A stretch of DNA of 64,000 nt. It comes from Candidatus Obscuribacteraceae bacterium (lineage in GTDB: Bacteria > Cyanobacteriota > Vampirovibrionia > Obscuribacterales > Obscuribacteraceae). Below, in pieces: positions 3 to 14,960 of the stretch. Below the pieces are notes generated by a model. That model searched no databases. It was given only the letters and a program-made list of their open reading frames with translations, and had not been told where the DNA came from. Both the position numbers and the translations under genes were made by a program. The stretch is taken from contig JBGAHS010000008.1 in the NCBI GenBank assembly GCA_044226015.1, positions 416,001 to 480,000 of the forward strand, in the 5' to 3' direction. Every line of letters begins with the position of its first letter. Position 1 is the stretch's first letter.

Positions 3-1979
3 AACCACTACGTCGGTCAAGAAAAATTGGTGCCACAAGCATCATGGGCACCAATAGCATTCGGCGGTGACTGGGTGGGTCCACCCAGACTGCAAAACGC
101 CCCTTCATTTCACTACGTTCATTCAGACCAGTGGCGCTATGACCGCTCGTTCAACGAAATGTGCAACGTAGCAGACCCCGGGCACACCATGGCATCAGGT
201 CACACCATTGACAAACAGATAATGGCAGTCCGAAATGGTTGGTTGCCTTGTTATCCACAATTCAATCGAAGCAATTTTGACCTCATTGATGAATCGATCA
301 AAAATGGAGCATCGTCTGATGAGCAGATCATCAACTATACAGTTGATGCATTGAAATCACGCAAACTGAAATTCTCCATGGAAGATCCAAACAATCCGGA
401 GAGCTTCCCCAGACTCTGGTACATCTGGCGTGGCAACGCAATTATGTCATCAGCGAAAGGGCATGAGTACTTTCTCAAGCACTACCTTGGCACGCACAAC
501 AATCTTGTGTCAGAAGAACAGGCACAAGAATTTGTCAAGGAAGTGGTCTGGCACGACAAAGTCGAGTTGGGCAAGATGGACTTGATTGTGGACCTCAACT
601 TCCGCATGGATACATCGGCTCTCTATTCAGACATCGTTCTGCCGGCGGCAACGTATTATGAAAAGCATGATCTTAACTCGACAGACATGCACACGTTCAT
701 ACATCCATTGCAACCGGCTGTGCCACCATGTTGGGAGTCTAAGTCTGATTGGGATATTTTCAAAGCAATATCGCAAAAGACCTCCGAGTTGGCTAAAACT
801 CACATGCCAGAGCCGCGAAAAGATCTTATGGTATCGCCTTTGATGCACGATACACCGGCCGAGTTGGCTCAGCCACACATAAAAGACTGGATGAAAGGCG
901 AGTGCGAGCCCATTCCAGGAAAAACAATGCCCGGCATGAAAGTTGTGACGCGAGACTACACCAAGATTTATGACAAGTTCATTTCGCTTGGTCCAAATTT
1001 CCGCAACAATGGACTTGCCGTACATGGAACACACTATGATGTTGACGATCTTTATGACCAGTATTTGAAAGACCACCCGATTGAAGAATGGGGCGGCAAC
1101 AAATATCCATCATTGAAAGACGCATACAATGCTTGCAACATTATCTTGCATTTCGCCCCTGAAACAAATGGCGAGCTTGCATGTCGTGCCTATCAATCAG
1201 AATCGATAAAAACTGGCATTGATCACAGTCACCTGGCTGAAGATACGCGAAGCGTTCGAATGACCTTCGATGACTTAAAAGCGCAACCGCGCCGTGTTTT
1301 AACCAGCCCCTACTGGACTGGAATTACAGCCAATGGACGCACGTATTCTGCATACTGCCAGAACGTCGAAGAGCTGATTCCGTGGCGCACATTGACTGGA
1401 AGACAAGAAATATACCTTGACCACGAAGCGTACATCGCATACGGCGAAAATCTTCCGACATTCAAACCTCGAGCAGATGTTCATGCATGTTATGACTTGC
1501 AGAACTCGCCGAAAGAAAGTGCGTCGCTGACTCTCAACTATTTGACGCCACATGGAAAATGGCATATTCACTCAACATTCGGTGACACGCTGCGAATGAA
1601 AACGCTTTCTCGTGGCATCGAACCAATCTGGCTCAACGATAAAGATGCAGACATGGTCGGAATCGAAGATAACGACTGGGTCGAAATCTACAATGACCAC
1701 GGAGTTGTTTGCACACGAGCATGTGTTAGCGCACGCATTCCCCGCGGTATCAGCATGATTTATCACTCGCCAGAAAGAACCGCCACAGTTCCAAAATCAA
1801 AACAGCGAGGCGGGAAACGAGCAGGTGGACATAACAGTCTCACTCGCGCTCGACTAAAACCACTGTTTATGATTGGTGGTTATGCTCAATTCACATATGC
1901 GTTCAATTACTGGGGTCCTACTGGAATAAACAGAGACACCTTCGTGATTGTCAAAAAAATGGACAACGTGCAATGGTAG
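3..1979 (+). CDS. narG: Respiratory nitrate reductase alpha subunit, C-terminal part (5'-truncated by the window)
   Basis: Frame is open from nt 3 (NHYVGQEKL, the NarG HYVGQEK motif). Also has [13 protein letters not shown]-like [56 protein letters not shown] and [12 protein letters not shown]. Followed by narH/J/I. Confidence 0.95.
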
Positions 1980-1995
1980 GCCGGAGGAGAATTTA

Positions 1996-3498
1996 ATGGA
2001 TATCCGAGCCCAGGTTTCAATGGTTTTTCACCTCGATAAATGTATCGGGTGTCACACCTGCAGCATCGCCTGCAAGAATGTGTGGACAGACCGCGCTGGT
2101 GCCGAATACATGTGGTGGAACAATGTTGAAACCAAACCAGGTACCGGTTTCCCAACACTATGGGAAGACCAGGAGCATTTCAAAGGTGGCTGGAAAATTG
2201 TAGGCAATAATGGAAAACGCAAGCTTGAATTGCGCTCGCAAGGCAAGCTAGACGCATTCTTGAAACTATTCTACAACCCAAATCAGCCCGGTCTTGATGA
2301 TTACTATGAACCATGGACATACAAATATAGTGATCTGTTTGATGCACCAGAAGGAGACGATCAGCCAACCGCCATTCCGATCTCACAGATCACCGGCGAG
2401 CCCGTCGATATCGTAGCTGGACCCAACTGGGATGACGACCTCTCAGGCTCAACCCTTTACGCAGAGAACGACATAAACCTCGATGCACTTTCAGACGAAG
2501 AGCGAGAACAATTGTTCGAAATTGAGCGCGTCTCGATGATGTATCTTCCGAGAATTTGCAATCACTGTGCAAACCCAAGTTGCGTAGCATCATGTCCTTC
2601 CGGTGCGCTATACAAGCGCGGCGAAGATGGCATCGTTCTTGTCAATCAAGAAATTTGCAAAGGCTGGAGAGCATGTGTAAGCGCCTGCCCTTATAAGAAG
2701 ATCTACTATAACTGGAAAACAGGCAAGTCAGAGAAATGCATTCTCTGTTATCCAAAATTAGAGACAGGTCAAATACCAAATTGCTTCCAGTCTTGTGTCG
2801 GTAGAATTCGTTATCTCGGTGTCTTGCTCTATGATGCTGACCAGATCGCCTCGTCAATGTCAGTTCCAGACGAAGCTCTCGTTGAATCACAAAGAAGTGT
2901 ATTTTGCGACCCTTACGATCCAAAAATCATCAAGCTTGCACGCGCTAACGGCATCAGCGAAGAATTCATCGAAGCTGCACAGAAATCGCCGGTCTACAAA
3001 TATGTAATGAAGTGGAAACTTGCACTTCCTCTGCATATTGAGTATAGAACGATGCCCATGCTCTTCTATGTGCCACCACTTCTTCCAGTAATGGGCAAGC
3101 TTGAGAACGGGCACTACGGCAATGTCATAGATGGTTTCTTCACGAGCCTGGAAAAATCTAGACTGCCAATTAAATACCTGGCGAAGTTATTTAGCGCAGG
3201 CAACACCGAACTTGTTGATGCTGTCATGAAGAAGCTAATGGCTGTGCGCTATTACAAACGCTCTCTCGACATGGGCGATGTTGATGTGGTTTCGATTAAT
3301 CGCATGATGAGAGAAGCCAACCTCACTCCGAAAGAAGCAGAAGAAATTTATGCTCTTACAGCACTTCCGACAGTTGATGAACGCTTTGTTCTGCCACCAC
3401 TTCAGAGGGAAGAGGCTGTCAACGGAACCTGTAATCCAGAAATATGCAAAGGCTCTTGCGGGCTAGGCATGAGCGTAACACCGGAGAGAGGACCATGA
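1996..3498 (+). CDS. narH: Respiratory nitrate reductase beta subunit (4 Fe-S clusters)
   Basis: ATG at 1996 with GGAGGA RBS at 1983-1988. N-terminus MDIRAQVSMVFHLDKCIGCHTCSIACK. Cys motifs CNHCANPSCVASCP, CKGWRACVSACP (3Fe-4S type) and CILCYP..CFQSC. Confidence 0.97.
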   Translation: MDIRAQVSMVFHLDKCIGCHTCSIACKNVWTDRAGAEYMWWNNVETKPGTGFPTLWEDQEHFKGGWKIVGNNGKRKLELRSQGKLDAFLKLFYNPNQPGLDDYYEPWTYKYSDLFDAPEGDDQPTAIPISQITGEPVDIVAGPNWDDDLSGSTLYAENDINLDALSDEEREQLFEIERVSMMYLPRICNHCANPSCVASCPSGALYKRGEDGIVLVNQEICKGWRACVSACPYKKIYYNWKTGKSEKCILCYPKLETGQIPNCFQSCVGRIRYLGVLLYDADQIASSMSVPDEALVESQRSVFCDPYDPKIIKLARANGISEEFIEAAQKSPVYKYVMKWKLALPLHIEYRTMPMLFYVPPLLPVMGKLENGHYGNVIDGFFTSLEKSRLPIKYLAKLFSAGNTELVDAVMKKLMAVRYYKRSLDMGDVDVVSINRMMREANLTPKEAEEIYALTALPTVDERFVLPPLQREEAVNGTCNPEICKGSCGLGMSVTPERGP

Positions 3499-4037
3499 GC
3501 ACCAAAATCAAATTGAGCCTGTCTGAAAAAATGCGTGCACTGTCAGCGGTGCTGGAATACCCTCGTGAAGACTTCATTGTCCAGCTCGATGCAGCAGCCG
3601 AAGCTGTACACGACAACCAGCAAGCCAGCCTACTTTTGTCAGAATTCAGGTCAGCGATAAATAAACTTAAGCCGCATGAATTGGAAGAGCTTTACACAAG
3701 AACTTTCGACCTGGCGCCAATTTGCATTCCATATGTGAGCAGTCATATTTACGGGGATGAGAACTTCGAAAGAGGCGCTCTCATGAGCGGCTTGCAGCAA
3801 CAATATGAAGATTGCAAGTTCAGCACCAATGGTGAACTGCCCGACCATGTGGCAATTATCTTGCGCTTTGCTCCGAATTTCTCAGAAGAAGAGTTGCAAG
3901 ACCTTATGGAATTCTGTCTGATTCAGGCTTTGCAGCGTATGCACGAAGCGCTGAAAGAAGCGGACAATCCCTATCAACACATTCTACAAACAGTACTACA
4001 AATCACTGAGTCAGAACGGCGAGGAAAAATACTATGA
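3495..4037 (+). CDS. narJ: Nitrate reductase molybdenum-cofactor assembly chaperone
   Basis: ATGA overlap with the narH stop. Motifs LEYP, LEELYTRTFD, ERGALM and GELPDH. Confidence 0.93.
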   Translation: MSTKIKLSLSEKMRALSAVLEYPREDFIVQLDAAAEAVHDNQQASLLLSEFRSAINKLKPHELEELYTRTFDLAPICIPYVSSHIYGDENFERGALMSGLQQQYEDCKFSTNGELPDHVAIILRFAPNFSEEELQDLMEFCLIQALQRMHEALKEADNPYQHILQTVLQITESERRGKIL

Positions 4038-5350
4038 CGGACACAATGTTCTTTATTGCATTGCCTTATCTGTCAATTTTTGTTTGTGTAGTTGGCAGCA
4101 TTCTGAGAATGCGAAGCTTACCGATGACGTACTCCTCACTTTCGTCGCAGTTCCTTGAAAGCAAGGCTCTGGTTTGGGGCTCAGTTCCCTGGCATATTGG
4201 TATCATAGGAATTGTGCTGGCACACTTTGTTGCATTCCTTTGCCCAGGGTTCTGGCAAATGTTGGTGGCACACGCGGTCGTAATGAAATCGATTGAGGCA
4301 ATTGGACTAACGTGCGCAATATGCTGTTTTGTCGGTCTCATCGTACTAGCAGTGCGTCGCATAAGTTCAGATCGCGTTCAAGCAGTAACAAGCCCGGTCG
4401 ATCTGCTAGTACTGCTTTTGCTTACGGTGCAAGTGGTGCTCGGCATCGCAGTTGCACTCTTACACCGATGGGGCTCAGCCTGGGCTGTTGGAACGGCAGT
4501 TCCCTACCTCTGGAGCTTGTGCCTCTTGCACCCGGACGTTAGCTATATTGCAGACCTGCCCTTGCTTGTAAAAGCACACATAGTGTTTGCCTGGCTGTTG
4601 ATCTTCCTGGTGCCATTCTCTCGCCTGATCCACATGTTCGCAGTGCCGCTGCAATACATTACGAGACCACCACAAAATGTTATCTGGAATAATTCCCGAC
4701 GCTCTGAAGCTGCAGCTGAGCAGTTTACAACGGAAGAGGCTAGACGAGATTTTCTCAAAGGTGGGGTTGGTATCACAGCAGGAACATTGCTTCTAACAGC
4801 TGGGGCTCTAGATAAAATGTTCGCGTTCTTCTTTGGTCCTCGCTTGAGTAAAACTGAGGAAGAAACGCTGATGGCAGAAAAAATCAAGCGCCTTGGCTCA
4901 GACACAGAGCAGCGTCGTCTTGAGTTAGAGAGACAGAGCAGTAAGTTCATTCTAGTTGCAGCAATGAGCGAACTGAGTAAGTCCGAAGGCAAATACTTCA
5001 TTGATTACGCGATGAACCCGGCATTAGCCTTTGCTGGCGAAGACGGAATGCCCATACTCATTTCAGCAAAATGTACTCACCTTGGTTGCACAGTCGGAAA
5101 TCAATTGAATAAGGAAGGCAAAATTCTCTGCCCATGCCATGTTTCCTTCTTCGACATTAAGACTGGCGAACCCAATGCAGATGCCCCAGCGAAAACACCG
5201 CTACCATTCTTGTGCTGGTCGATTATGGACAAGATTGGAAACATGGTCGCCAGCCGTGATGAGAAGGGTCAAATTAAAGGTGATACCAGCGCTGATGCAA
5301 TCAAAGACTGCAATCTCTATGTTTGTAAAAGCGAAGAGGTGAAGGCATGA
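4034..5350 (+). CDS. narI: Fusion protein: NarI (diheme cytochrome b gamma subunit) + twin-arginine TM anchor + Rieske [2Fe-2S] domain
   Basis: Residues ~1-220 are NarI (SSLSSQFLE, PWHIGIIGIVLAHF, KAHIVF..PFSRLIHMF; four heme His). RRDFLK at aa 237-242 is followed by a hydrophobic helix. Rieske boxes CTHLGC (nt 5072-5089) and CPCHVSFFD (nt 5129-5155). One uninterrupted frame with ATGA overlaps at both ends. Confidence 0.92.
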   Translation: MTDTMFFIALPYLSIFVCVVGSILRMRSLPMTYSSLSSQFLESKALVWGSVPWHIGIIGIVLAHFVAFLCPGFWQMLVAHAVVMKSIEAIGLTCAICCFVGLIVLAVRRISSDRVQAVTSPVDLLVLLLLTVQVVLGIAVALLHRWGSAWAVGTAVPYLWSLCLLHPDVSYIADLPLLVKAHIVFAWLLIFLVPFSRLIHMFAVPLQYITRPPQNVIWNNSRRSEAAAEQFTTEEARRDFLKGGVGITAGTLLLTAGALDKMFAFFFGPRLSKTEEETLMAEKIKRLGSDTEQRRLELERQSSKFILVAAMSELSKSEGKYFIDYAMNPALAFAGEDGMPILISAKCTHLGCTVGNQLNKEGKILCPCHVSFFDIKTGEPNADAPAKTPLPFLCWSIMDKIGNMVASRDEKGQIKGDTSADAIKDCNLYVCKSEEVKA

Positions 5351-6453
5351 ACTCAAGTTCCTCAAACCAAATCAGTAAATTTGGCGAGTTTCTCGCTTCA
5401 AGATTTCCAGTAGAAAAAATGGACTTCCACCACATGGTGGCGCAAAAAGAAGTACCTGTCCACAAAATGACATGGGGCTACTACACTGGTGGATTGACAC
5501 TGTTCTTTCTGGTAATTCAGGTAATTACAGGGCTCTTGCTTTTGTTTTACTACCAGCCTACGACCGCTTTCGCGCATCTGTCTGTTGAATACATAACGAA
5601 GCACGTTGCCGGTGGTGCGCTTATAAGAAATATGCATACATGGTCTGCCTCAGCCATGATATTTTTTGCAATGGTGCATTTGCTCACAGCTTTTGCGATG
5701 AAATCTTTTGAGAAACCCAGAGAGATAACATGGATAGTTGGGGTTCTCTTACTCTTCATAACATTCGTTTTCGGCTTTACAGGTTACCTCCTTCCATGGA
5801 ATCAGATCGCGGTAAATGCGACCAAGGTTGGACTGCAGTCAGTGGAAGAAGTGGGCAATTATCTACCGGGCGTGGTGTCTCAATTACCACATATTTTCCG
5901 AGAAACTTTCCAGGGTGAAGCGAGTGTTGGACAGTCAACTCTGGGACGATTCTATGCCATGCACGTAGTGCTACTTCCGCTCGCGCTCTTCGGCTTGTTG
6001 GGCATACATCTGCTTTCTGTACAGCTGCACGGAATGAGCAAAGGCGTCGATGAACCAGGCAAGAGAACCGAAAGATTCTTTCCATTTTTCGTCTTCAAAG
6101 ACCTTTCATTGTGGGCAGCCATCTTCTTAATTCTGCTCACCCTTTCATGGTGCATTCCATTTGACTCATTCCTGCCGTTCCCACTTCTAGAGCCTTACAA
6201 TGCACTGGGCTCAACCCCACAGGGTATCAAACCAGAATGGTATTTCTTCTTCCTGTATTACCCTCTGGAAATGCTGCCCTTCTGGTTGATATTGCTTCTC
6301 ACAAATGCCGCTGTAATCGTGCTTCTTCTCGCTCCGTGGATCTTCAAGGGCACAAGCAGAACAACATTACGCTGGATAACAGTTGCCGCAAGCGCCTACT
6401 TAGTGATCATGACGCTATTCGGCGAGCAAATTTATCACCTCGTTAAACATTGA
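5347..6453 (+). CDS. Cytochrome b subunit of a Rieske/cytochrome b (bc-type) complex, unsplit
   Basis: QVITGLLLLFYYQP; RNMHTWSASAMIFFAMVH (His97/His111); WIVGV; FTGYLLPWNQ; RFYAMHVVLLP..GIH (His206/His221); IKPEWYF Qo motif at aa 296. Confidence 0.95.
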   Translation: MNSSSSNQISKFGEFLASRFPVEKMDFHHMVAQKEVPVHKMTWGYYTGGLTLFFLVIQVITGLLLLFYYQPTTAFAHLSVEYITKHVAGGALIRNMHTWSASAMIFFAMVHLLTAFAMKSFEKPREITWIVGVLLLFITFVFGFTGYLLPWNQIAVNATKVGLQSVEEVGNYLPGVVSQLPHIFRETFQGEASVGQSTLGRFYAMHVVLLPLALFGLLGIHLLSVQLHGMSKGVDEPGKRTERFFPFFVFKDLSLWAAIFLILLTLSWCIPFDSFLPFPLLEPYNALGSTPQGIKPEWYFFFLYYPLEMLPFWLILLLTNAAVIVLLLAPWIFKGTSRTTLRWITVAASAYLVIMTLFGEQIYHLVKH

Positions 6454-6466
6454 GCGGAGCCAGGAA

Positions 6467-7099
6467 ATGAAAACGCGTAGACTTAGCCAAATACAAAAAC
6501 TCCAGGTTTATGGCGCACTGGCCACAGTAGCAGTTCTGGCATTCGCAGCAAAAGTAAATGCATATCCTGAGTTCCAACAATTCGTTGAAACTCACTCGGG
6601 AAAATCAGTTAACTGCGCGCTATGCCACCAGAATGGAAATGGTCCATCAGGAAAAGAAGAGGGACAAGTAGGGTCGCTCAATGAAAAAGAACTTGCTGCA
6701 TTGAATTCAGCAAGAGGCGCCATAGAACCCGGAATGTTGAAGGCGGACAGCCCTATCCTTAACAAGTTTGGCAACAGCATAATGAGGTCGATTGGCAAGA
6801 AGAAATTTCTTGAGCTGCGAGAAAAGCCTGAACAGCTTGCTGAAGTTCTAGATAAAAAAAGCGATATCGATGAAGACGGAATTCCGGACGGACAAGAATA
6901 TCTAGACGGAACTGACCCAAGCAACAAAAATCATGGTGATCCGTTGAAGCTCTTTGCAGTGAACATCGACAGATACAAATCTCACCTGATTCTTGCGGGA
7001 CTGGCTGTCGTTTTTCTTGATTGGGGATTCGCCCACTTAATCATGGGATTCTATCGCAAGTCGCAAGCGAAAAAGCTAAAGCGCGGCGAAACGACATGA
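6467..7099 (+). CDS. Membrane-anchored monoheme c-type cytochrome with an acidic Ca-binding-like motif
   Basis: Signal-like N-terminus ending VNA-YPEF, single CALCH (nt 6614-6628), DIDEDGIPDGQEYLDGTDP, and a C-terminal TM helix with basic tail. GGAG RBS; starts 13 nt after cytochrome b. Confidence 0.8.
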   Translation: MKTRRLSQIQKLQVYGALATVAVLAFAAKVNAYPEFQQFVETHSGKSVNCALCHQNGNGPSGKEEGQVGSLNEKELAALNSARGAIEPGMLKADSPILNKFGNSIMRSIGKKKFLELREKPEQLAEVLDKKSDIDEDGIPDGQEYLDGTDPSNKNHGDPLKLFAVNIDRYKSHLILAGLAVVFLDWGFAHLIMGFYRKSQAKKLKRGETT

Positions 7100-7171: not shown

Positions 7172-7633
7172 TTAGTGACGTGCGCCAGGACGTCCACCGG
7201 GTTTGCTATCAGCTAATGGAATGCTTGAACAAAGTGGTGCCTTTGACTCCTGTACAAGTTCTGCCAGCGTTGAACTGGCAAAGGCAAGCTCAACTGCCGC
7301 CGTTGCTTCAGAAAGCCGTTTATGCAGTGGACACAAATTCATTCCGTGCGTTTCAAGTCCTAGAGGGCAAACGTCGATGCGTTTAATTGGGTCAACCGCG
7401 TTCACGATGTCGAGAACCGTTATTTCTTCTACTGGTCGTGACAAAACGAAGCCACCACCGATTCCTCTCTGCGAAATAACCAAATGTGAACGACCCAATT
7501 GCTGGAGGATTTTGCTCAAGTAGTGAACGGATACTTTGGTTGTTTCTGCTATTTGTTCAGCTGTAGCAGCCGAGCCGCGCATGGCTAGGAACACCATGGC
7601 TCTCAATGCATACTCAGCAGTTTGCGATATCAT
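7172..7633 (-). CDS. Rrf2-family transcriptional regulator
   Basis: MISQTAEYALRAMVFLA, YLSKILQQL, SQRGIGGGFVL, ITVLDIVNAVDP, and C-terminal cysteines CPLG..LCPLH..PLC. Confidence 0.95.
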   Translation of the reverse strand: MISQTAEYALRAMVFLAMRGSAATAEQIAETTKVSVHYLSKILQQLGRSHLVISQRGIGGGFVLSRPVEEITVLDIVNAVDPIKRIDVCPLGLETHGMNLCPLHKRLSEATAAVELAFASSTLAELVQESKAPLCSSIPLADSKPGGRPGARH

Positions 7634-7718: not shown

Positions 7719-8795
7719 TCAGTAAGGCTGAACACTGTCTTGAAAAAGGCACAAATTGTCTTGAGAAAGATAGTCTCCTGATTCGGCAAAAGCACGAGCA
7801 CGCGAACCACCGCAAATCGCCTTGTAGCGGCATGTTCCGCACTTACCACGCAAAAGCGAAGGGTTCCGCAAATCTTTGAATAATTGCGATTCACGATATA
7901 TTTCCACAAGGCTTTGATCCCTCAAATTGCCTGCTGGGAGAGGGAGAAAGCCACTTGGACAAATATCTCCAGTATGAGAGATGAACAAAGTTCCTTTGCC
8001 ATCATTTACAGACTGATAGGAACGTAGTGCACCAAGTCGCATCTGGGGGCTCAGATCATCGAGATTATGATTAGATTGAGCCGAAAAAATGGTCTCTAGT
8101 AGAACTCTGCGAAACTGTGGAGCCGCAGTAGCTTTAACATCAAAGCTGGATGATACCGATAGTTCAGCCATCTTTTTCAAAACTTCTTCCGCTTGAGTGG
8201 CAGTGATTTGCATCTCTTGATGCGCTCTACCAGTAGGCACAACAAAGAACAAGCTCCACAAAACGGCAGCATTGAGTTCACTCACAAAGAAATGCATGTT
8301 GTCAAAATAATCAATGTTGTGTTTGCTTATGCTTGTGTTTATTTGGACTGGAATACCAAATTCTTTAGCCCACGAAATTATGTCCAAAGTTCGTGCAAAA
8401 CTTCCATCAATACGCCTGAACGCATCATGCAACTGAGCCGTGTGCCCGTCCATACTGATTGCGAGACGCTCGATTCCAGCCTCTGCCAACCTCAAGACAA
8501 CCTGTTCGGTAACTTTCGGCGTCGCACTTGGAGTGATGGCAACTTTGAAATTACGGCGCTTACATTCTTGAATTATTTCAAACAGATCTGGACGCTCAAG
8601 AGGATCGCCCCCAGTCAAAATTATTAGCGGATTATCAAATTCTTGAAGTTGATTCAACACCTGCTCTATCTCTTCGGTGCTCAATTCCTGAGCGGCCCGC
8701 CGCCTCTGTGCGCGCGCACGGCAGTGCTGACAAGCCAATCCGCAAGCCCTGGTCAATTCCCACAGAACTATGTAAGGGGATTGATCAAAACTCAT
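7719..8795 (-). CDS. Radical SAM/SPASM protein (AhbD/NirJ-like heme-related family)
   Basis: WELTRACGLACQHCRA (CxxxCxxC), LTGGDPL, SPASM-like GDICPSGFL and CGTCRYKAICGGSRARA..C. Start set at the ATG of MSFDQSP; the upstream TTG at 8891 is possible. Confidence 0.88.
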   Translation of the reverse strand: MSFDQSPYIVLWELTRACGLACQHCRARAQRRRAAQELSTEEIEQVLNQLQEFDNPLIILTGGDPLERPDLFEIIQECKRRNFKVAITPSATPKVTEQVVLRLAEAGIERLAISMDGHTAQLHDAFRRIDGSFARTLDIISWAKEFGIPVQINTSISKHNIDYFDNMHFFVSELNAAVLWSLFFVVPTGRAHQEMQITATQAEEVLKKMAELSVSSSFDVKATAAPQFRRVLLETIFSAQSNHNLDDLSPQMRLGALRSYQSVNDGKGTLFISHTGDICPSGFLPLPAGNLRDQSLVEIYRESQLFKDLRNPSLLRGKCGTCRYKAICGGSRARAFAESGDYLSQDNLCLFQDSVQPY

Positions 8796-8980
8796 TTTCT
8801 TGAACGAATTATTTGAATTTGTGCTCACGTGAAGCCTCTTTGCACGGTTTGCTGCACGGTAACCATTATGTCTCAGGCTCGAGATCAGCAACCTCAGTCC
8901 AAAGATGGATACCTGTACGAAATGATAATTTCAGTCGAAAGACTACTCCCTAAGAACGATGAATCCATCTTACGGATAAC

Positions 8981-9080: not shown

Positions 9081-10745
9081 ATGACTATTCAATCACCAAT
9101 TCCGAGTTCAGAATCGAGCCAGCCAGTCAGATCTGATCTAGGCAGATCTGATTTGATTGGCTGGAATCCTGAAGACGAAAATTTTTGGGAGAAGCAGGGA
9201 AAAAAAGTTGCCTTCCGCAACTTATGGATTTCCGTACCCTGCCTACTTTGCGCATTTGCGGTTTGGATGTACTGGAGCATTATTACAGTACAAATGCTAA
9301 ACCTCGGCTTCCCCTACACGAAAGCTGAACTCTTTACACTTTCATCAATCGCAGGGCTATCAGGCGCGACGCTGCGAATTCCTAGTACTTTCTTGATACG
9401 CATGTGTGGCGGCAGAAACACAATTTTCTTCAGCACTCTTTTATTGATTTTTCCAGCCCTGGGCACAGGTTTAGCATTGCAAGATACGAATACTCCGCTC
9501 TGGGTATTTCAAGCCATGGCATTGCTATCTGGACTCGGTGGTGGCAATTTTGCTTCATCAATGTCAAACATTTCATTCTTCTTTCCCAAGAAAATGCAAG
9601 GACTTTCGCTGGGACTAAACGCTGGCGTAGGGAACTTTGGTGTTACAACCATGCAAATACTGGTACCACTGGCAATGACCATGGGGTTGGCAGGGCAGCA
9701 TTCAATGACATTGAAATCTGCTAGCGGAACACTTATCGGAAAAATTCCAGCAGGCACGGAAACCTATATCCAAAATGCTGGATTCATCTGGGTTCTCATC
9801 CTCACTCCACTGGTCATACTCTCGTGGATGTTGATGAACAATATACGCGACGAGCACGTTTCACCGGACACCGGCTCACCCCTTTCAGCAATCTCACGAG
9901 CGGGTGGAATGCTTTCAATCGGTCTTTTGACATCAGCTCTTGGCGCATGGGCTCTCTTACCTGCAAAATCAGGTGGGCTCGGAGTCAATCAATGGCTGGT
10001 ATTACCGGCAGTTGTATTTGCTACAGTCGGTTTGATGAAACTGCTTCCAGGAAAAATAAGACCTATTCTTGAAAGACAGTACAAAGTGTTTGGCAACAAA
10101 CATACATGGATAATGACCATCATTTATACGATGACTTTCGGTAGCTTCATCGGGTATGCAGCGGCATTTCCGTTAGCTATTCAGACAATCTTCGGCTTCT
10201 GCCATGTCGCAGGAGCTGATGGAACGCTGACACACACCATGGCAAACCCAAATGCACCCAGCGCATTAACATACGCATGGATGGGCGCTTTTATCGGCGC
10301 ATTCATCAGACCTATCGGCGGATGGATTTCAGACAAGGTTGGCGGTGCCCTCGTTACACAAATCGCCTCGGTAGCGATGGTGGCAGGTGCACTAGGAAGC
10401 GCACATTACCTAAAACTCGCATACCAAAGCGCGACCCCCGAACAGTACTTCATGCCGTTCTTCCTCTTGTTCTTATTGCTCTTCCTAGCCTCAGGAACAG
10501 GAAATGGATCAACCTTCAGAAGCGTAGCTTACATATTCAACAAAGAACAAGCCGGACCCGTACTGGGCTGGACATCTGCGATAGCAGCATATGGTGCATT
10601 CATAATTCCGAAAGTGATAGGCGAACAAATTGAGCACGGAACGCCTGAATACGCACTTTACGGATTTGCTGTCTTCTATGTTGTTTGTGTAGTTCTGAAC
10701 TGGTGGTACTACCTCAGACCAGGCGCAGAATTCAAAAATCCATAG
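9081..10745 (+). CDS. narK: NarK/NarU-type (NarK2) nitrate/nitrite MFS transporter
   Basis: WNPEDENFWEKQGKKVAFRNLWISVPCLLCAFAVW, GLGGGNFASSMSNISFFFPK, MTFGSFIG and GTGNGSTFR nitrate-signature motifs. Confidence 0.95.
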   Translation: MTIQSPIPSSESSQPVRSDLGRSDLIGWNPEDENFWEKQGKKVAFRNLWISVPCLLCAFAVWMYWSIITVQMLNLGFPYTKAELFTLSSIAGLSGATLRIPSTFLIRMCGGRNTIFFSTLLLIFPALGTGLALQDTNTPLWVFQAMALLSGLGGGNFASSMSNISFFFPKKMQGLSLGLNAGVGNFGVTTMQILVPLAMTMGLAGQHSMTLKSASGTLIGKIPAGTETYIQNAGFIWVLILTPLVILSWMLMNNIRDEHVSPDTGSPLSAISRAGGMLSIGLLTSALGAWALLPAKSGGLGVNQWLVLPAVVFATVGLMKLLPGKIRPILERQYKVFGNKHTWIMTIIYTMTFGSFIGYAAAFPLAIQTIFGFCHVAGADGTLTHTMANPNAPSALTYAWMGAFIGAFIRPIGGWISDKVGGALVTQIASVAMVAGALGSAHYLKLAYQSATPEQYFMPFFLLFLLLFLASGTGNGSTFRSVAYIFNKEQAGPVLGWTSAIAAYGAFIIPKVIGEQIEHGTPEYALYGFAVFYVVCVVLNWWYYLRPGAEFKNP

Positions 10746-10837: not shown

Positions 10838-12346
10838 ATGTCCGACGATGCAAAGGCAGTCTCAGTTCTGACTGTAAACACGCTCTCCTTTACGGTTTGC
10901 TTTGCTGCCTGGATGATGTATGGTGTCTTGATTACATACCTGGTTGATAATGGGCTTGTGCACTTCGACAAAGCGCAGCTCGGTTGGCTGATCGGTACGC
11001 CAGTTCTGACAGGCTCAATAATACGCTTGCCAGTCGGAATCTGGACTGACAGATATGGCGGGCGAATAGTATTTGCTTTAGTCATGTTGGTTTCAGCAGC
11101 ATCAATGTACTGCGTGAGTTTCTGCAACACCTTTACAGAATTCCTGATTGCTGCTCTTGGTTTTGGGCTTTCAGGCACAGCGTTTGCTGTGGGAATTGCT
11201 TACACTTCAGTCTGGTTTCCAAAAGAGAAACAGGGCACCGTGCTTGGTATCTTCGGCGCAGGAAACGCAGGCGCAGCCATTACAAGTTTCGGAGCGCCGC
11301 ACTTGCTCGCCTACCTTACTGACCACAACCACAATCTTGAAGGATGGCGCAACCTGCCAAAAGTTTATGCGGCAGCACTTGTGATAATGACTGTTATTTT
11401 CTGGCTATTCTCTTTTCCTAAGAAAGTTGACCACGGTAAGGGTTTCACTCTTGCCCAACAGCTAGCACCATTGAAGCATGTGCGCGTATGGCGATTTGGA
11501 CTCTACTACTTTTTCGTGTTCGGAGGATTCGTTGCACTATCTCAGTGGCTGATTCCATACTATCTAAATGTATATGCAATGAGTCTGGCTACGGCTGGCT
11601 TTTACGCCGCATGCTTCAGCTTGCCTTCAGGCGTAATCAGAGCATTTGGAGGATGGCTCTCTGACATGTGGGGTGCCCGCTCAGTCATGTATTGGGTGCT
11701 TTGTTCTTGCCTGATATGCTGCGCATTACTTTGCGTTCCGCGAATGGACATCATGTCTCCAGGAGAAGGAATTATGGCGCTAAAAGGCGGCACAGTCAGC
11801 TCGGTGACCGGCGCCTTAATAGAAGTAGGAGAACAAAAATACAAACTGCGTGAAAAACCAGCGCAAGATGTTCTGACGCAGGCGTCGCAAAACGAAAACA
11901 TGATCGTCTGGCCTACATTCACCTTCTGGCAAGAGCCTGCGGTTAAAGTCGGCGACACGATAGTGAAGAAACAACTGCTTGCCAGAGGCATCACTCACAT
12001 CTTTTTCCAGGCAAATGTCTGGATATTCACAGCCCTGGTACTGGTAGTCGGAGTTGCGACCGGCATAGGAAAAGCAGCCGTCTACAAGCATATTCCTGAT
12101 TACTTTCCATCCGATGTCGGTGTAGTTGGTGGCATCGTCGGCGTCATCGGGGGTCTTGGTGGCTGGGTCGGTCCAATTCTCTTCGGCATGATGCTTAATG
12201 CCACGGGAATCTGGACAACATGCTGGCTCTTCTTCTCAGTAATTATCGTAATGTGTTTAGTCTGGATGCACTGGACTATAACGCACATGATGAATGAGAG
12301 AGCTCCAGAAGTAGCACGCGCAATTGAGCTTGAAACTACGCCATAG
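10838..12346 (+). CDS. narK: NarK1-type nitrate MFS transporter with a ~90-aa inserted soluble domain
   Basis: NTLSFTVCFAAW, PVLTGSIIRLP, FAVGIAYTSVWFPKEKQGTVLGIFGAGNAG, VWRFGLYYFFVFGGFVAL and GIGKAAVYKHIPDYFP. Insertion at about nt 11738-12020. Confidence 0.92.
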   Translation: MSDDAKAVSVLTVNTLSFTVCFAAWMMYGVLITYLVDNGLVHFDKAQLGWLIGTPVLTGSIIRLPVGIWTDRYGGRIVFALVMLVSAASMYCVSFCNTFTEFLIAALGFGLSGTAFAVGIAYTSVWFPKEKQGTVLGIFGAGNAGAAITSFGAPHLLAYLTDHNHNLEGWRNLPKVYAAALVIMTVIFWLFSFPKKVDHGKGFTLAQQLAPLKHVRVWRFGLYYFFVFGGFVALSQWLIPYYLNVYAMSLATAGFYAACFSLPSGVIRAFGGWLSDMWGARSVMYWVLCSCLICCALLCVPRMDIMSPGEGIMALKGGTVSSVTGALIEVGEQKYKLREKPAQDVLTQASQNENMIVWPTFTFWQEPAVKVGDTIVKKQLLARGITHIFFQANVWIFTALVLVVGVATGIGKAAVYKHIPDYFPSDVGVVGGIVGVIGGLGGWVGPILFGMMLNATGIWTTCWLFFSVIIVMCLVWMHWTITHMMNERAPEVARAIELETTP

Positions 12347-12472: not shown

Positions 12473-12625
12473 GGTTCAGCAAATCAATCCTGGTTTCAGT
12501 AAATCAATCCTGGTTCAGCGAATCGATCCTGGTTCAGCGAATCGATCCTGGTTCAGCAAATCGATCCCGGTTCAGCGAATCGATCCTGGTTCATATTATC
12601 AATCATGGTTCAGCGAATCAATCGT
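12473..12625. repeat. Tandem repeat, 8 copies of a 19-bp unit (consensus GGTTCAGCGAATCGATCCT)
   Basis: Units start at 12473, 12492 (20 bp), 12512, 12531, 12550, 12569, 12588 and 12607. They abut directly with no spacers. Confidence 0.95.
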
Positions 12626-12951
12626 TGCGCAATTAAACCAACGAATTTACTTTTACCCCTGTACCACCAACCAAGATGATTATTGCATTGACGGCAAACA
12701 GCAAACGACCAATCATATCCCACAAACCAACTCGCCTCAGGAGTGGGCTCACCAATGTCGGCCGCACCTGGCGCCTCGGAGAAACAGAGCACGTGAAATG
12801 AATATCCAGCAGGGTTGCGGAAGGTATGCTCATGGGGTTGAATAGCAGCGCCTGGGGTGGTTATTTCAAAATCACAGGCTTTGCAGCGGACGACTTTCTT
12901 CTCTTCCGTGTTGGTCTTCTCTTCAAGTTCAATCGAAAAGCCTGTGCTCAT
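12610..12951 (-). CDS. Cereblon-family (CULT / thalidomide-binding domain) protein
   Basis: CKAC and CRQC zinc pairs, FRNPAGYSF, and SWFVGYDW..HLGWWY aromatic-cage motif. Confidence 0.92.
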   Translation of the reverse strand: MSTGFSIELEEKTNTEEKKVVRCKACDFEITTPGAAIQPHEHTFRNPAGYSFHVLCFSEAPGAADIGEPTPEASWFVGYDWSFAVCRQCNNHLGWWYRGKSKFVGLIAQRLIR

Positions 12952-12968
12952 AAATCAATAGTGAAGCA

Positions 12969-14960
12969 TCAAATCAGTTTGACTATACCCAGTGCAGCCA
13001 GAGCTTTCAAAATGGCTATGAAAGCCGAGGACAATGATTCACCAGCAATGGCGCCTGATGCTACAGGAACGGTGTATCCTTCGGCAGTTTTGGCATGAAC
13101 CTTCTTCCATATCGACGCAATGCTTGCACCAATCATAAAAGCAAGAGCGTTTTGGAAAGGCATTACCCAGGCGAGTCCCAAGCCCATTGCAGATGGCGTA
13201 AACTTTTTCCACTTTGGAAAGTAGTGATCGACAAGAGTCAAGGCAAACCCTAACGCGAGTCCAATCATTATGGCGGCCTGCGCTGACTTGGGAATAGAAT
13301 CAATGCCATGCGCCAGAGCCTGTGCAACGGCTTTCCAGATGTTGGTTGCTGGTGGGTCGTAACTCTCAAGCACTTGTTTTGAGGGAATCATCAAATACCA
13401 AGCAGGCACAACAGCGATGACACCAAAGAAGACACCAGACAATTGCGCAAAGAACTGCTTACGCGGATTAGCCCCAAGCAAATACCCGCTCTTCAAGTCG
13501 GTTAGCAAGTCAGCCGAAGCGATAGCAGTGTTTGCGGTCACACTTGCTGTCATCAAATTGGCGGTGATGTTATTGGGACACAAAACAGCAAAGGTGAGCT
13601 GTGAAACTTTTCCCATGGCCCCTGTCGGTGTAATGTCAGTTTCACCTGTTGCCCGGCATGCCACCAGCGCCAGTGCGAAACTCATCACCACCGCAAAAAG
13701 TCCCAAATGCGGCGAGATATTGAACGCAAAATACATAACGATTGCCAACAAAATGGCAAACGGTAAAGCACCAAGAATGCACCACTTAATCGGAACTTCC
13801 ATCTGGTTTAGCTTTGCCATTTCGAGTTGATCGCCCGAGAGTTCGCTAGAGGTATTCACGTTCTGAAAGGTTCTAACTATGGTCTTCCACTGCAAAGCGA
13901 AAGCCGTCAAGCCAGAGGCAACCATAATCGCGGTTCCACCCCATAGTGCCCAACCAGAAATAATTTTTGCACCAGACTCAATGTCGTGACTGGCTACAAG
14001 GCCAGGTCCTAAACAGAAATAGAGAAAACATGCGCTTATGAACATGGAGAATGACACTCGCATTCCAACAATCATTCCTGCTGCGATGAGCAATACGCTT
14101 GGTTCAAAACCGAACCCGCGCAGAGTCTCCATTTTGAAACCTTGAAAGGTAATGGGAAATGGTATCAGTTCTGGAAGCTTGAAGTTAATCGCCTTTTGCC
14201 ACGCCCACTCACCCTTGCTAGCGATTCCTACCAAAGCCCCAATCACAAGCGTTACGACAAGCGAATAAGCCTGGTAGACAGCTTCTTTCGAACCACCATA
14301 CAAACTCTTTAAAGTTTCAGCAGCGGCTATTCCACTAGGAAAAGGAAGCTGCTCTTTATTAATCATCTGGCGCTTCATCGGAACAGCGAGCATCACACCA
14401 AGCATTGCAGTAGCGAATGTCCAAATCGCACAGATCTCCCAGGGCAAGTGCTTTCCTTCAATCAATAGGTAGGCACCAAATGCCATACCAATGGTTGAGC
14501 CAGTGGAGTATCCGGCGGCACTGGCTGTGGATTGCATGCAGTTACTTTCGAGGATGCTCATCTGAGTGATTTTGGGAATCAACACCATAAATGTTCGCCA
14601 GATCACAAAAGAAAGAACGCAAGCGGTGATAGCAACACCGAAGCCCCAGCCCAATTTGATGTGCGTGTACAAATTGGAGATAGCCATCATCATGCCAAGA
14701 AAACCACCCATCAGCACTGCGCGGGGCGTCAACTGCGCCACCTGGTCGCCTTGATAGATATTGCGATACCAGTGAAGCTCTCGATCTTCGTAATTCTCAG
14801 AGGCTTCCTTCTCATGTTGGACAATTTGCGCGTCCTGCAAGTCGGGCGACAGCTCACGAGCCTCATCAACAGAACCACTCAATTCAGAAATGGCCTCATC
14901 TTTGTACACAACATTGATGTCGCCTTCTTTTGCTGAATCTTGCTCATCTCCCTGGTTCAC
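12969..14960 (-). CDS. OPT-family oligopeptide transporter
   Basis: QLTPRAVLMG, SNLYTHIKLGWGFGV, LESNCMQSTASAAG, LPFPSGIAAAE, GETDITPTG, DLKSGYLLGANPRKQF and VASGAIAGES. Confidence 0.95.
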   Translation of the reverse strand: MNQGDEQDSAKEGDINVVYKDEAISELSGSVDEARELSPDLQDAQIVQHEKEASENYEDRELHWYRNIYQGDQVAQLTPRAVLMGGFLGMMMAISNLYTHIKLGWGFGVAITACVLSFVIWRTFMVLIPKITQMSILESNCMQSTASAAGYSTGSTIGMAFGAYLLIEGKHLPWEICAIWTFATAMLGVMLAVPMKRQMINKEQLPFPSGIAAAETLKSLYGGSKEAVYQAYSLVVTLVIGALVGIASKGEWAWQKAINFKLPELIPFPITFQGFKMETLRGFGFEPSVLLIAAGMIVGMRVSFSMFISACFLYFCLGPGLVASHDIESGAKIISGWALWGGTAIMVASGLTAFALQWKTIVRTFQNVNTSSELSGDQLEMAKLNQMEVPIKWCILGALPFAILLAIVMYFAFNISPHLGLFAVVMSFALALVACRATGETDITPTGAMGKVSQLTFAVLCPNNITANLMTASVTANTAIASADLLTDLKSGYLLGANPRKQFFAQLSGVFFGVIAVVPAWYLMIPSKQVLESYDPPATNIWKAVAQALAHGIDSIPKSAQAAIMIGLALGFALTLVDHYFPKWKKFTPSAMGLGLAWVMPFQNALAFMIGASIASIWKKVHAKTAEGYTVPVASGAIAGESLSSAFIAILKALAALGIVKLI

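Follow-up and report, generated by a model that had tools for sequence, protein, structure and literature searches.

Textbook bacterial respiratory nitrate reductase (Nar) bypasses the cytochrome bc complex, moves two charges per nitrate and wastes about half of the menaquinol/nitrate span. In Escherichia coli NarGHI (structures 1Q16, 1Y4Z and 1Y5I; locus L081), quinol is oxidized directly at heme bD of the NarI subunit, with His66 and Lys86 at the site and a yield of two charges per nitrate. The narCGHJIKT cluster of Thermus thermophilus (L082) also encodes a diheme periplasmic cytochrome, NarC, which is thought to carry electrons outward and to replace complex III (PMC7694296). For Nar1 of Streptomyces coelicolor, Falke et al. 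(PMC7931247) proposed that Q-cycle electrons pass via c hemes to NarI hemes bD and bP and on to NarG, giving four H+ rather than two; there, the enzyme borrows the aerobic bcc-aa3 supercomplex, which is encoded by separate genes and was linked to Nar1 by co-purification. In haloarchaea, Rieske and cytochrome b (cyt b) genes lie with the nitrate reductase, and a Q-cycle has also been proposed (PMC3509893). In the present study, we describe an operon at the start of a 64,000-nucleotide stretch of Candidatus Obscuribacteraceae bacterium DNA (GCA_044226015.1, contig JBGAHS010000008.1, positions 416,001 to 480,000; hereafter the window), in which narI is fused to a Rieske gene and followed by genes for cyt b and a new cytochrome c.

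The operon shares with the Thermus cluster the gene order narC-G-H-J-I, a diheme periplasmic NarC, a cytoplasmic NarG and a nearby narK, and its NarI belongs to the same subfamily, which has an invariant Glu in helix 3. Thermus NarI differs in that it is free, retains Arg where E. coli has Lys86 and lies apart from any bc genes. The likeness to E. coli NarGHI extends to the FS0 and Mo-Asp ligands of NarG, NarH, NarJ and a five-helix diheme NarI, whereas E. coli lacks NarC and the bc module. The haloarchaeal cluster has an outward NarG, no NarI, no cytochrome c, a Gly/Phe Rieske protein and a cyt b of the actinobacterial/Thermus type (PMC3509893); its defining traits, a Tat-exported NarG and the absence of NarI, are not those of the window operon. 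A preliminary description of the window, written from the sequence alone, had taken the haloarchaeal clusters for comparison and called the operon a hybrid. The closest template is instead Thermus narCGHJI combined with a captured Rieske-cyt b-cyt c module. Its proposed mechanism is like that put forward for the Streptomyces system; unlike the latter, the window operon contains a dedicated bc module that is covalently tied to NarI.

This operon is real, conserved and uncharacterized. It joins two known machines and is of the NarCGHI type by most features, with the quinol site as the exception. We propose, with a probability of about 60%, that its products form one membrane complex in which menaquinol would be oxidized at cyt b and NarI would feed cytoplasmic NarGH, moving four charges per nitrate.

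The fusion is a single 438-amino-acid (aa) open reading frame (ORF) that contains the Pfam domains Nitrate_red_gam (aa 3-218, E 1e-58) and Rieske (aa 306-389, E 5e-8). It consists of five NarI helices with four heme His residues, a twin-arginine anchor, a helical neck and a Rieske head. A species-genome scan confirmed 578 stretches, of which the best 80 were kept and were hence chosen for likeness. These 80 loci comprise 57 fused loci, 19 with unfused NarI, a frameshifted fusion (L059) and three free Rieske-cyt b modules. A protein search returned 556 matches, and both Pfam domains occur in 119 of the best 120, the other being a 313-aa piece. These 119 matches and the 57 fused loci among the 80 rule out an assembly artefact or a chance fusion. 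The nearest named homologues come from Obscuribacterales, and the 57 fused loci bear 14 phylum labels, some of which look wrong, with four loci unlabelled; Verrucomicrobiota (15) and Melainabacteria (13) are the most frequent.

A search for NarI and Rieske domains in one protein, together with their gene neighbourhood, had been suggested in the preliminary description, and the neighbourhood bears out the pairing. Where a fused locus has sufficient DNA, it continues with cyt b in 53 of 54 cases and with cytochrome c in 53 of 53, and upstream lie narJ (52/52), narH (45/45), narG (40/40) and narC (39/39). The single cyt b miss is L025, in which cyt b is frameshifted into cytochrome c. This cyt b accompanies none of the 19 unfused NarI loci. 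Such joint travel of cyt b, cytochrome c and narC with the fusion counts in favour of a single complex. The NarI proteins of the fused loci form one clade in a quick tree (SH-aLRT 99), as do their NarG proteins (SH-like 100), and both clades lie beside Thermus-type enzymes.

According to ORF calls and the genome contig, the full unit consists of seven genes, narC-narG-narH-narJ-narI::Rieske-cyt b-cyt c, and its parts are as follows (positions in the window unless prefixed with the genome and contig, G000:C12).

G000:C12:413440-414342, outside the window: narC, diheme cytochrome c; ends 4 nucleotides (nt) 5' of narG.
3-1979, plus strand: narG, 3' part; the whole gene (1210 aa) spans G000:C12:414347-417979.
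1996-3498, plus strand: narH, Fe-S subunit, 500 aa; TIGR01660, 637.9 bits (cut-off 524).
3495-4037, plus strand: narJ chaperone, 180 aa; PF02613, E 2e-12.
4034-5350, plus strand: narI::Rieske fusion, 438 aa; TIGR00351, 131.4 bits (cut-off 105.6).
4280-4282, plus strand: Val83 codon, at the E. coli NarI Lys86 position by alignment with E. coli and Thermus NarI.
4739-4834, plus strand: internal twin-arginine motif and sixth membrane helix, the predicted Tat signal-anchor of the Rieske head.
4850-4940: helical neck, conserved and about 30 aa long (aa 273-302), which joins the Rieske head to the Tat anchor.
4949-5200, plus strand: Rieske [2Fe-2S] domain with both Cys/His boxes.
5347-6453, plus strand: cyt b, 368 aa, with seven predicted helices, four heme His and PEWY.
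6467-7099, plus strand: monoheme cytochrome c, 210 aa, with a signal peptide, CxxCH and a C-terminal membrane helix.

The ATGA overlaps of narH/narJ, narJ/narI and narI/cyt b and the 13-nt gap before cytochrome c are as originally described. The six genes named at that time are in place; the unit has narC as a seventh gene upstream. NarG, NarH and NarI all score above the NCBIfam equivalog cut-offs (NarG, TIGR01580, 1535.9 bits; cut-off 1084). NarG is 60.6% identical to Thermus NarG. The earlier proposal of a cytoplasm-facing enzyme, which called for inspection of the NarG N-terminus, agrees with the absence of a Tat signal from all 39 full-length NarG proteins of the fused loci, on which ground an outward-facing NarG was rejected; these proteins have the FS0 His/Cys and Mo-Asp ligands. 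NarC possesses a signal peptide, two CxxCH motifs, each with an invariant Met, and a C-terminal membrane helix. Its Cys, His and Met ligands are kept in 41 of 41 sequences, and it shares 30% identity with Thermus NarC over 211 aa (E 3e-15).

One line of evidence for our proposal lies in the quinol site of NarI. Val83 of the fusion aligns with E. coli Lys86, eight residues N-terminal of a conserved Gly. We take Lys86, together with His66, to be needed for quinol oxidation at heme bD of E. coli NarI. A basic residue occupies this column in one of 57 fused rows (the window, 55 loci and L059, with the partial loci L007 and L039 left out) and in none of 117 fused proteins (two short ones left out); the two sets overlap. 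The column is Arg in all 19 unfused loci, in Thermus, in L086 and in 15 of 15 further Bacteroidota loci, one of which repeats L077, so that 34 of 34 unfused sister loci carry Arg. Four columns distinguish fused from unfused NarI, this one among them. Gly65 was considered as a second marker of the quinol site and is uninformative because Gly or Ala occurs in fused and unfused proteins alike. The heme ligands H54, H64, H182 and H200 are kept in all 57 rows and all 117 fused proteins. As the fusion has lost a residue on which quinol oxidation likely depends, the bc part is the probable electron source of its NarI moiety, which would then no longer oxidize quinol directly and would probably serve only as an inward electron carrier.

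Several observations at this site weigh against the proposal. The loss of the basic residue maps to a single tree branch and represents one event rather than 57. Of 35 short NarI proteins, Arg is present in 23, another is a partial fusion, and the remaining 11 are unfused proteins that also lack the basic residue, seven inside the fused clade and four outside; a search for the gene context of these seven found none. The fused locus L025 carries Arg, and this only Arg-bearing fused copy has a narG and a cyt b that are broken by frameshifts. Finally, four unfused loci with a neighbour resembling the pentaheme alternative complex III (ACIII) keep Arg, so the basic residue need not be lost when a quinol:cytochrome c oxidoreductase adjoins.

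Several side observations concern the relatives of this enzyme. Frameshifts in narG, cyt b or narI::Rieske are found in L025, L046 and L059 and may reflect error or decay. One genome of the same genus (G052, 6% contamination) has two complete copies of the seven-gene operon (L093 and L094). L110:817-2223 encodes a Bacteroidota NarI with an N-terminally fused cytochrome c domain (468 aa), and relatives of about 320 aa (L108, L109, L111-L114 and L117) have extra N-terminal membrane segments and no heme motif. In L062, L067, L069, L070, L086 and L107, unfused narCGHJI-type clusters are followed by pentaheme cytochrome genes, and NarI keeps Arg; four of these clusters have ActB-sized genes of the ACIII type. 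Thermus-type nar genes also occur in genomes labelled as the oxygenic cyanobacteria Microseira and Phormidium (L061 and L064), possibly through contamination.

How would the Rieske head reach the periplasm? The five-helix NarI fold of the fusion matches E. coli NarI structures (Foldseek, E about 5e-11), and the C-terminal end of E. coli NarI is cytoplasmic. In the fusion, R237-R238 are kept in all 57 rows (and in 42 of 42 in a separate count) and Phe240 in 51 of 57, and the sixth helix (aa 249-267) has a hydropathy of 1.36 compared with 2.24-2.89 for the five NarI helices. A structure model of the fusion (overall pLDDT 77, with a linker below 50) shows the helical neck and the Rieske head. The neck is also present in free Rieske proteins and is longer than the usual hinge. 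A twin-arginine motif that follows Sec-type helices and precedes a weakly hydrophobic helix marks a handover from Sec to twin-arginine translocation (Tat), as described by Tooke et al. (PMC5449189), and the genome encodes TatC. Since NarI ends in the cytoplasm, the twin arginine and the weakly hydrophobic helix predict a periplasmic Rieske head that is exported via an internal Tat signal-anchor. Dual-targeted proteins such as actinobacterial QcrA share the internal twin arginine, the weak helix and the cofactor domain; the fusion differs by placing five diheme NarI helices ahead of the motif, six helices in all, and the accessible part of PMC5449189 does not name the diheme NarI type among dual-targeted families.

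The free Rieske homologues start at the same twin-arginine motif, and the same cyt b and cytochrome c come after them (L056, L071, L089, L090, L092 and L095-L099). We infer from this pattern a fusion of narI to the front end of a portable module of three genes. Modules free of nar genes are located at L089:7061-11720, L097:7626-12618 and L099:545-5854, and also in L076. In L089, L097 and L099, the free module lies beside a small cytochrome c, a secreted protein of 426-557 aa and a Cyc2-like heme domain, which fits the published Cyc2 motif at L097:12235-12618. In Obscuribacterales-type genomes, this arrangement hints at a path for extracellular electron uptake or for uphill flow.

The high-potential Rieske type has Ser and Tyr at two potential-tuning positions. 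In the fusion, these positions are held by Ser371 and Phe373 (each 57/57). As the low-potential type is Gly/Phe (PMC3509893), the Ser/Phe Rieske domain appears to lie between the two types.

A Rieske domain of this kind could serve acceptors other than NarI. In a branched use of the operon, NarI would itself oxidize quinol in a redox loop, and the bc module would pass electrons, via cytochrome c and NarC, to acceptors on the periplasmic side, for instance a copper protein or an oxidase of the cbb3 type. Such a flow from the Ser/Phe Rieske domain would be downhill and easy, and an outward transfer by NarC to Nir and Nor has been proposed for Thermus (PMC7694296). The host genome (92% complete) encodes a fused cbb3-type oxidase with three c hemes (G000:C1:305393-308188, L102), which lies at a distance from all three cyt b loci. 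It also encodes a multicopper protein with two domains (G000:C12:95704-96771, L100) that is weakly NirK-like (75.5 bits, below the cut-off of 296). The four retained heme His of NarI and the 11 unfused NarI proteins without the basic residue are also compatible with branched use. However, the Lys86 equivalent was lost on the fused branch and is Arg in every unfused sister locus, and a covalent link to NarI would be unnecessary. Moreover, two further Rieske/cyt b operons in the genome (G000:C4:145215-149404, L083; C5:64495-72989, L084) already sit with their own oxidase-type genes, one with bd-oxidase-like genes, including one with a fused cytochrome c, and the other, which has two cyt b genes, with an oxidase of the C family. 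The NO reductase is of the quinol-fed qNor type (G000:C8:473536-475932, L101). The genome search found no NrfA, only a weak partial NirS-family match and no NosZ match, the control of the last search being silent too. We regard branched use as unlikely.

The operon could alternatively run in reverse, with NarGH oxidizing nitrite, electrons passing via NarI, NarC and cytochrome c to the Rieske domain, and the proton motive force driving a reversed Q-cycle that reduces menaquinone. This direction, too, would be in keeping with a NarI that has lost its quinol site. A similar cluster works as a nitrite oxidoreductase (NXR) in Nitrobacter (PMC7694296), a Melainabacteria enzyme with adjacent petB was labelled cytoplasmic NXR by Matheus Carnevali 2019 (PMC6349859), and uphill flow is plausible where free module copies lie beside Cyc2-like cytochromes. 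On the other hand, RuBisCO, the only marker of carbon fixation searched for, was not found in the 92% complete genome, and the genome context, with anaerobic ribonucleotide reductase, ric and heme genes as neighbours, gives no support. The identity of NarG to Thermus NarG also speaks against reverse use, although the NarG tree has no NxrA reference. Furthermore, nitrate respiration has been predicted for O. phosphatis by Soo 2014 (PMC4040986), and the supplement of PMC6349859 likewise predicts reduction. Reverse use is very improbable in our judgement. The anaerobiosis genes near the operon (nrdD, nrdG, ric and narK) count in favour of nitrate respiration. The combination of qNor with no NrfA, RuBisCO or curated NirK in the genome fits a heterotroph that respires nitrate to nitrite, and the genome makes menaquinone via the futalosine route (MqnA/D found, MenD not found).

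The module downstream of narI has the features of a bc complex, namely the Rieske boxes, the Tat anchor, a cyt b with four His and PEWY, and the order Rieske-cyt b-cyt c. Its cyt b joins a b6-like N-terminal part to a subunit IV part in a single 368-aa chain. The closest solved chain is cytochrome b6 (E 5e-42), and the His spacing is of the b6 type. The heme ligands H97, H111 and H206 are kept in 55 of 55 sequences, H221 in 54 and PEWY in 53-54, so that the four His and PEWY of cyt b, like the heme His and full Rieske domain of the fusion (57/57 rows), hold across the family as the preliminary description had read them from the window. The Lys-Asp pair K251/D252, kept in 53 of 55, lies at the place where we expect the Qi site. 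Two features argue against a complete Q-cycle as we propose it: Gln (Q226, 54/55) stands at what we take to be the usual Qi His position, and the Cys for heme ci is present in none of the 55. Cytochrome b6f identity was rejected on account of the single chain, instead of a split cyt b6 and subunit IV, and the missing heme ci Cys.

The last gene of the operon encodes the new cytochrome c, which belongs to no listed family. Its signal-peptidase site lies exactly 17 residues ahead of CxxCH in all 57 loci and in all 38 representatives checked. The mature protein is predicted to start at 6563 with Tyr-Pro, and across the family the first mature residue is Tyr, His or Phe, in most cases with Pro next to it. 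Apart from the His of CxxCH, the family conserves no Met or His as a candidate sixth ligand. In cytochrome f, the amino group of the N-terminal Tyr ligates the heme iron (PMC6616624), and Cyt572 is cleaved at a similar motif to give an Ala/Tyr-Pro-x-Phe start (PMC13741234). By analogy, the N-terminal amino group may ligate the heme of the new cytochrome; alternatively, the heme may be five-coordinate or receive a ligand from another subunit. In addition, an acidic EF-hand-like loop between the CxxCH region and the C-terminal membrane helix may bind calcium.

The new cytochrome thus resembles cytochrome f (PMC6616624, PMC7908018) and Cyc2/Cyt572 (PMC8406198, PMC13741234) in having a heme near a processed N-terminus, and differs from cytochrome f and Cyc2 in its helical model and in the absence of a porin and of any significant profile match. 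Its structure model (pLDDT 96.8) contains helices only, with no strand of at least three residues. Homology to cytochrome f was rejected because the model is helical rather than a beta-sheet and no profile match is significant. Homology to Cyc2 was rejected because the protein has no fused porin, ends in a membrane helix after 210 aa and differs in spacing from the Cyc2 motif AXPXFAR[Q/K][T/Y], which sits 5 aa ahead of CxxCH (PMC8406198). An hhalign comparison with a Cyc2-like protein aligned CxxCH only (probability 33%), and with a cut-down motif profile three of the five highest-ranked non-members were Cyc2-like ORFs, though at E of 0.2-0.4. The cytochrome and its profile found no sequence match in PDB, its NCBIfam scan gave none, Foldseek gave none at E <= 0.001, and the Pfam scan assigned no family except TSP3_bac in 32 of 57 members. 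VIA-align matched the C-terminal helix only (best Z 5.2), which is not proof of a new fold because the domain was not folded separately. A language-model Atlas assigned the protein to a 280-member cluster of its own (0.96) and also gave two Temptin_C clusters, scored 0.89 and 0.82, which are a lead only; for window 6563-7096, 65% of the 0.89 neighbour cluster carries PF24784 (Temptin C-terminal domain). A 50%-identity search returned its own family and then acidic-repeat proteins.

The new cytochrome is predicted to bind cyt b in the place of cytochrome c1 or f. A model of the two proteins with three hemes reached a score of 0.74, compared with 0.01 for the best control; the score mark used was reached by 116 of 157 solved pairs and by 2 of 215 mismatched pairs. 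The model runs agree in at least 96% of contacts, with a partner pLDDT of at least 84, and place the membrane helix and heme region of the cytochrome on cyt b aa 245-293, adjoining PEWY. As a caution against our proposal, the score may be due in part to likeness to solved bc complexes.

Does the module complete a full Q-cycle? Coupling could be partial if the Rieske head passed electrons straight to heme bD or if no electron returned at Qi, in which case the gain would fall below four charges. The covalent tie of the head to NarI via a long helical neck would allow a direct transfer, and the Gln at the Qi His position, the absence of a heme ci Cys and the lack of a conserved Met/His sixth ligand in the new cytochrome point the same way. 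Against partial coupling, the ligands of both b hemes are kept, as is the K251/D252 pair at the place expected for Qi; cytochrome c and narC are retained in every locus with enough DNA, and the model puts the cytochrome c heme region on cyt b beside PEWY. We judge partial coupling to be decidedly unlikely.

In the full mechanism that we propose, menaquinol would be split at the Qo (PEWY) site of cyt b. The high-potential electron would travel from the Rieske center via the new cytochrome c, NarC, NarI hemes bD and bP, NarH and NarG to nitrate, the order of the two c-type carriers being a guess. The other electron would pass from heme bL to bH of cyt b and re-reduce quinone at Qi. Per nitrate, two electrons would cross the membrane in cyt b and two in NarI, giving four charges instead of two. 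Two-hybrid tests have shown an interaction between NarC and NarI of Thermus (PMC7694296), and the cytochrome c-NarI fusion of L110 counts in favour of a c-type feed to NarI. The preliminary description had already let the bc branch feed NarI; the loss of the Lys86 equivalent, the periplasmic Rieske anchor and the predicted contact of cyt b with cytochrome c point to such a feed, with a route that probably runs via NarC. With potentials as in PMC7931247, about 1000 meV are available per nitrate from menaquinol (MKH2), which exceeds the 600-800 meV required for four charges, so the energy is sufficient; with ubiquinol (660 meV), four charges would be marginal. The presence in the genome of MqnA/D, of TatC and of two separate Rieske/cyt b operons with oxidase-type genes of their own also counts in favour of our proposal.

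The weak step of this mechanism is the transfer from the Rieske center to bD and bP against the membrane potential, and it counts against our proposal. The potential of E. coli heme bD, about +20 mV, lies well below that expected for the Rieske center. For the latter, comparison with the types in PMC3509893 suggests a potential near or above +200 mV. Given this gap and the inward step against the membrane potential, the NarI hemes must be retuned to higher potentials than in E. coli. Tentatively, and with more doubt than we attach to the core proposal, we picture a hard-wired supercomplex with NarI as a wire, a doubled charge yield, a third kind of bc-complex c-subunit, helical, of unsolved fold and ligated by its N-terminus, and a module captured once and spread over a dozen phyla, among them the sister group of the oxygenic cyanobacteria.

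The surroundings of the operon include the following genes in the window.

7172-7633, minus strand: Rrf2-family regulator.
7719-8891, minus strand: TIGR04053 radical SAM/SPASM protein, related to the AhbD heme b synthase.
9081-10745, plus strand: narK-type nitrate/nitrite transporter 1.
10838-12346, plus strand: narK-type nitrate/nitrite transporter 2.

Both narK genes noted earlier are thus present, about 2 kb downstream rather than adjacent, behind the rrf2 and radical-SAM genes on the other strand. A narK gene is present within 44 of the 57 fused loci, and in other loci rrf2 is frequently beside narC. Upstream of narC, a family scan identified hemY, a B12 radical SAM gene, ric, nrdD and nrdG. 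After narK, a Yippee/cereblon-like zinc-binding ORF and an OPT-family transporter occupy window 12610-14960 on the minus strand, and their membership in the cluster is unsupported. Promoter and terminator scans of the locus gave counts no higher than shuffled sequence, and no clear FNR box was seen ahead of narC. One run of activated-sludge RNA contained short contigs of relatives only, none of which spans two genes by the rule of the tool.

Parts of this picture are already in print. In a Melainabacteria genome, from the same lineage as the host, petB and narK come after a cytoplasmic nitrate/nitrite oxidoreductase for which a reduction role was predicted, and the same report refers to Soo 2017 for the occurrence of a bc-related protein next to NarG (PMC6349859). 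The host has both oxidase-linked operons as well, and L083 and L084 match the complex III/IV operons reported for Melainabacteria. Neither the fusion nor narC, the new cytochrome c, the altered quinol site or the occurrence in other phyla is mentioned in the accessible part of PMC6349859, and that of Dibrova 2017 (PMC5600118) does not mention the fusion. In a literature search on the operon, no account turned up of the fusion, of the alteration at the quinol site or of the new cytochrome; Soo 2017 may contain more. The novelty that had been suspected for the architecture may accordingly hold for the fusion, on which no paper was found, but not for the adjacency of NarG and petB (PMC6349859, citing Soo 2017) or for a NarGHI fed by a Q-cycle, as proposed for Streptomyces (PMC7931247).

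In the order of the host, NarI occurs in 36 of 85 genomes, with a 436-494-aa frame in 34 of these, and the new cytochrome c occurs in 41 of 85. The fused type is thus the main Nar type of this order. The fused lineages come from wastewater, lake, soil and groundwater, and automatic annotation labels the gene as plain narI. The Streptomyces spore case rests on co-purification, whereas here seven genes encode the whole proposed path, including a covalent link, so that the idea is open to direct tests. If our proposal is true, a Q-cycle-fed Nar would double the charge moved per nitrate, four instead of two, and the new cytochrome would represent a third solution for the Rieske acceptor, beside cytochromes c1 and f, in the sister group of the oxygenic cyanobacteria.

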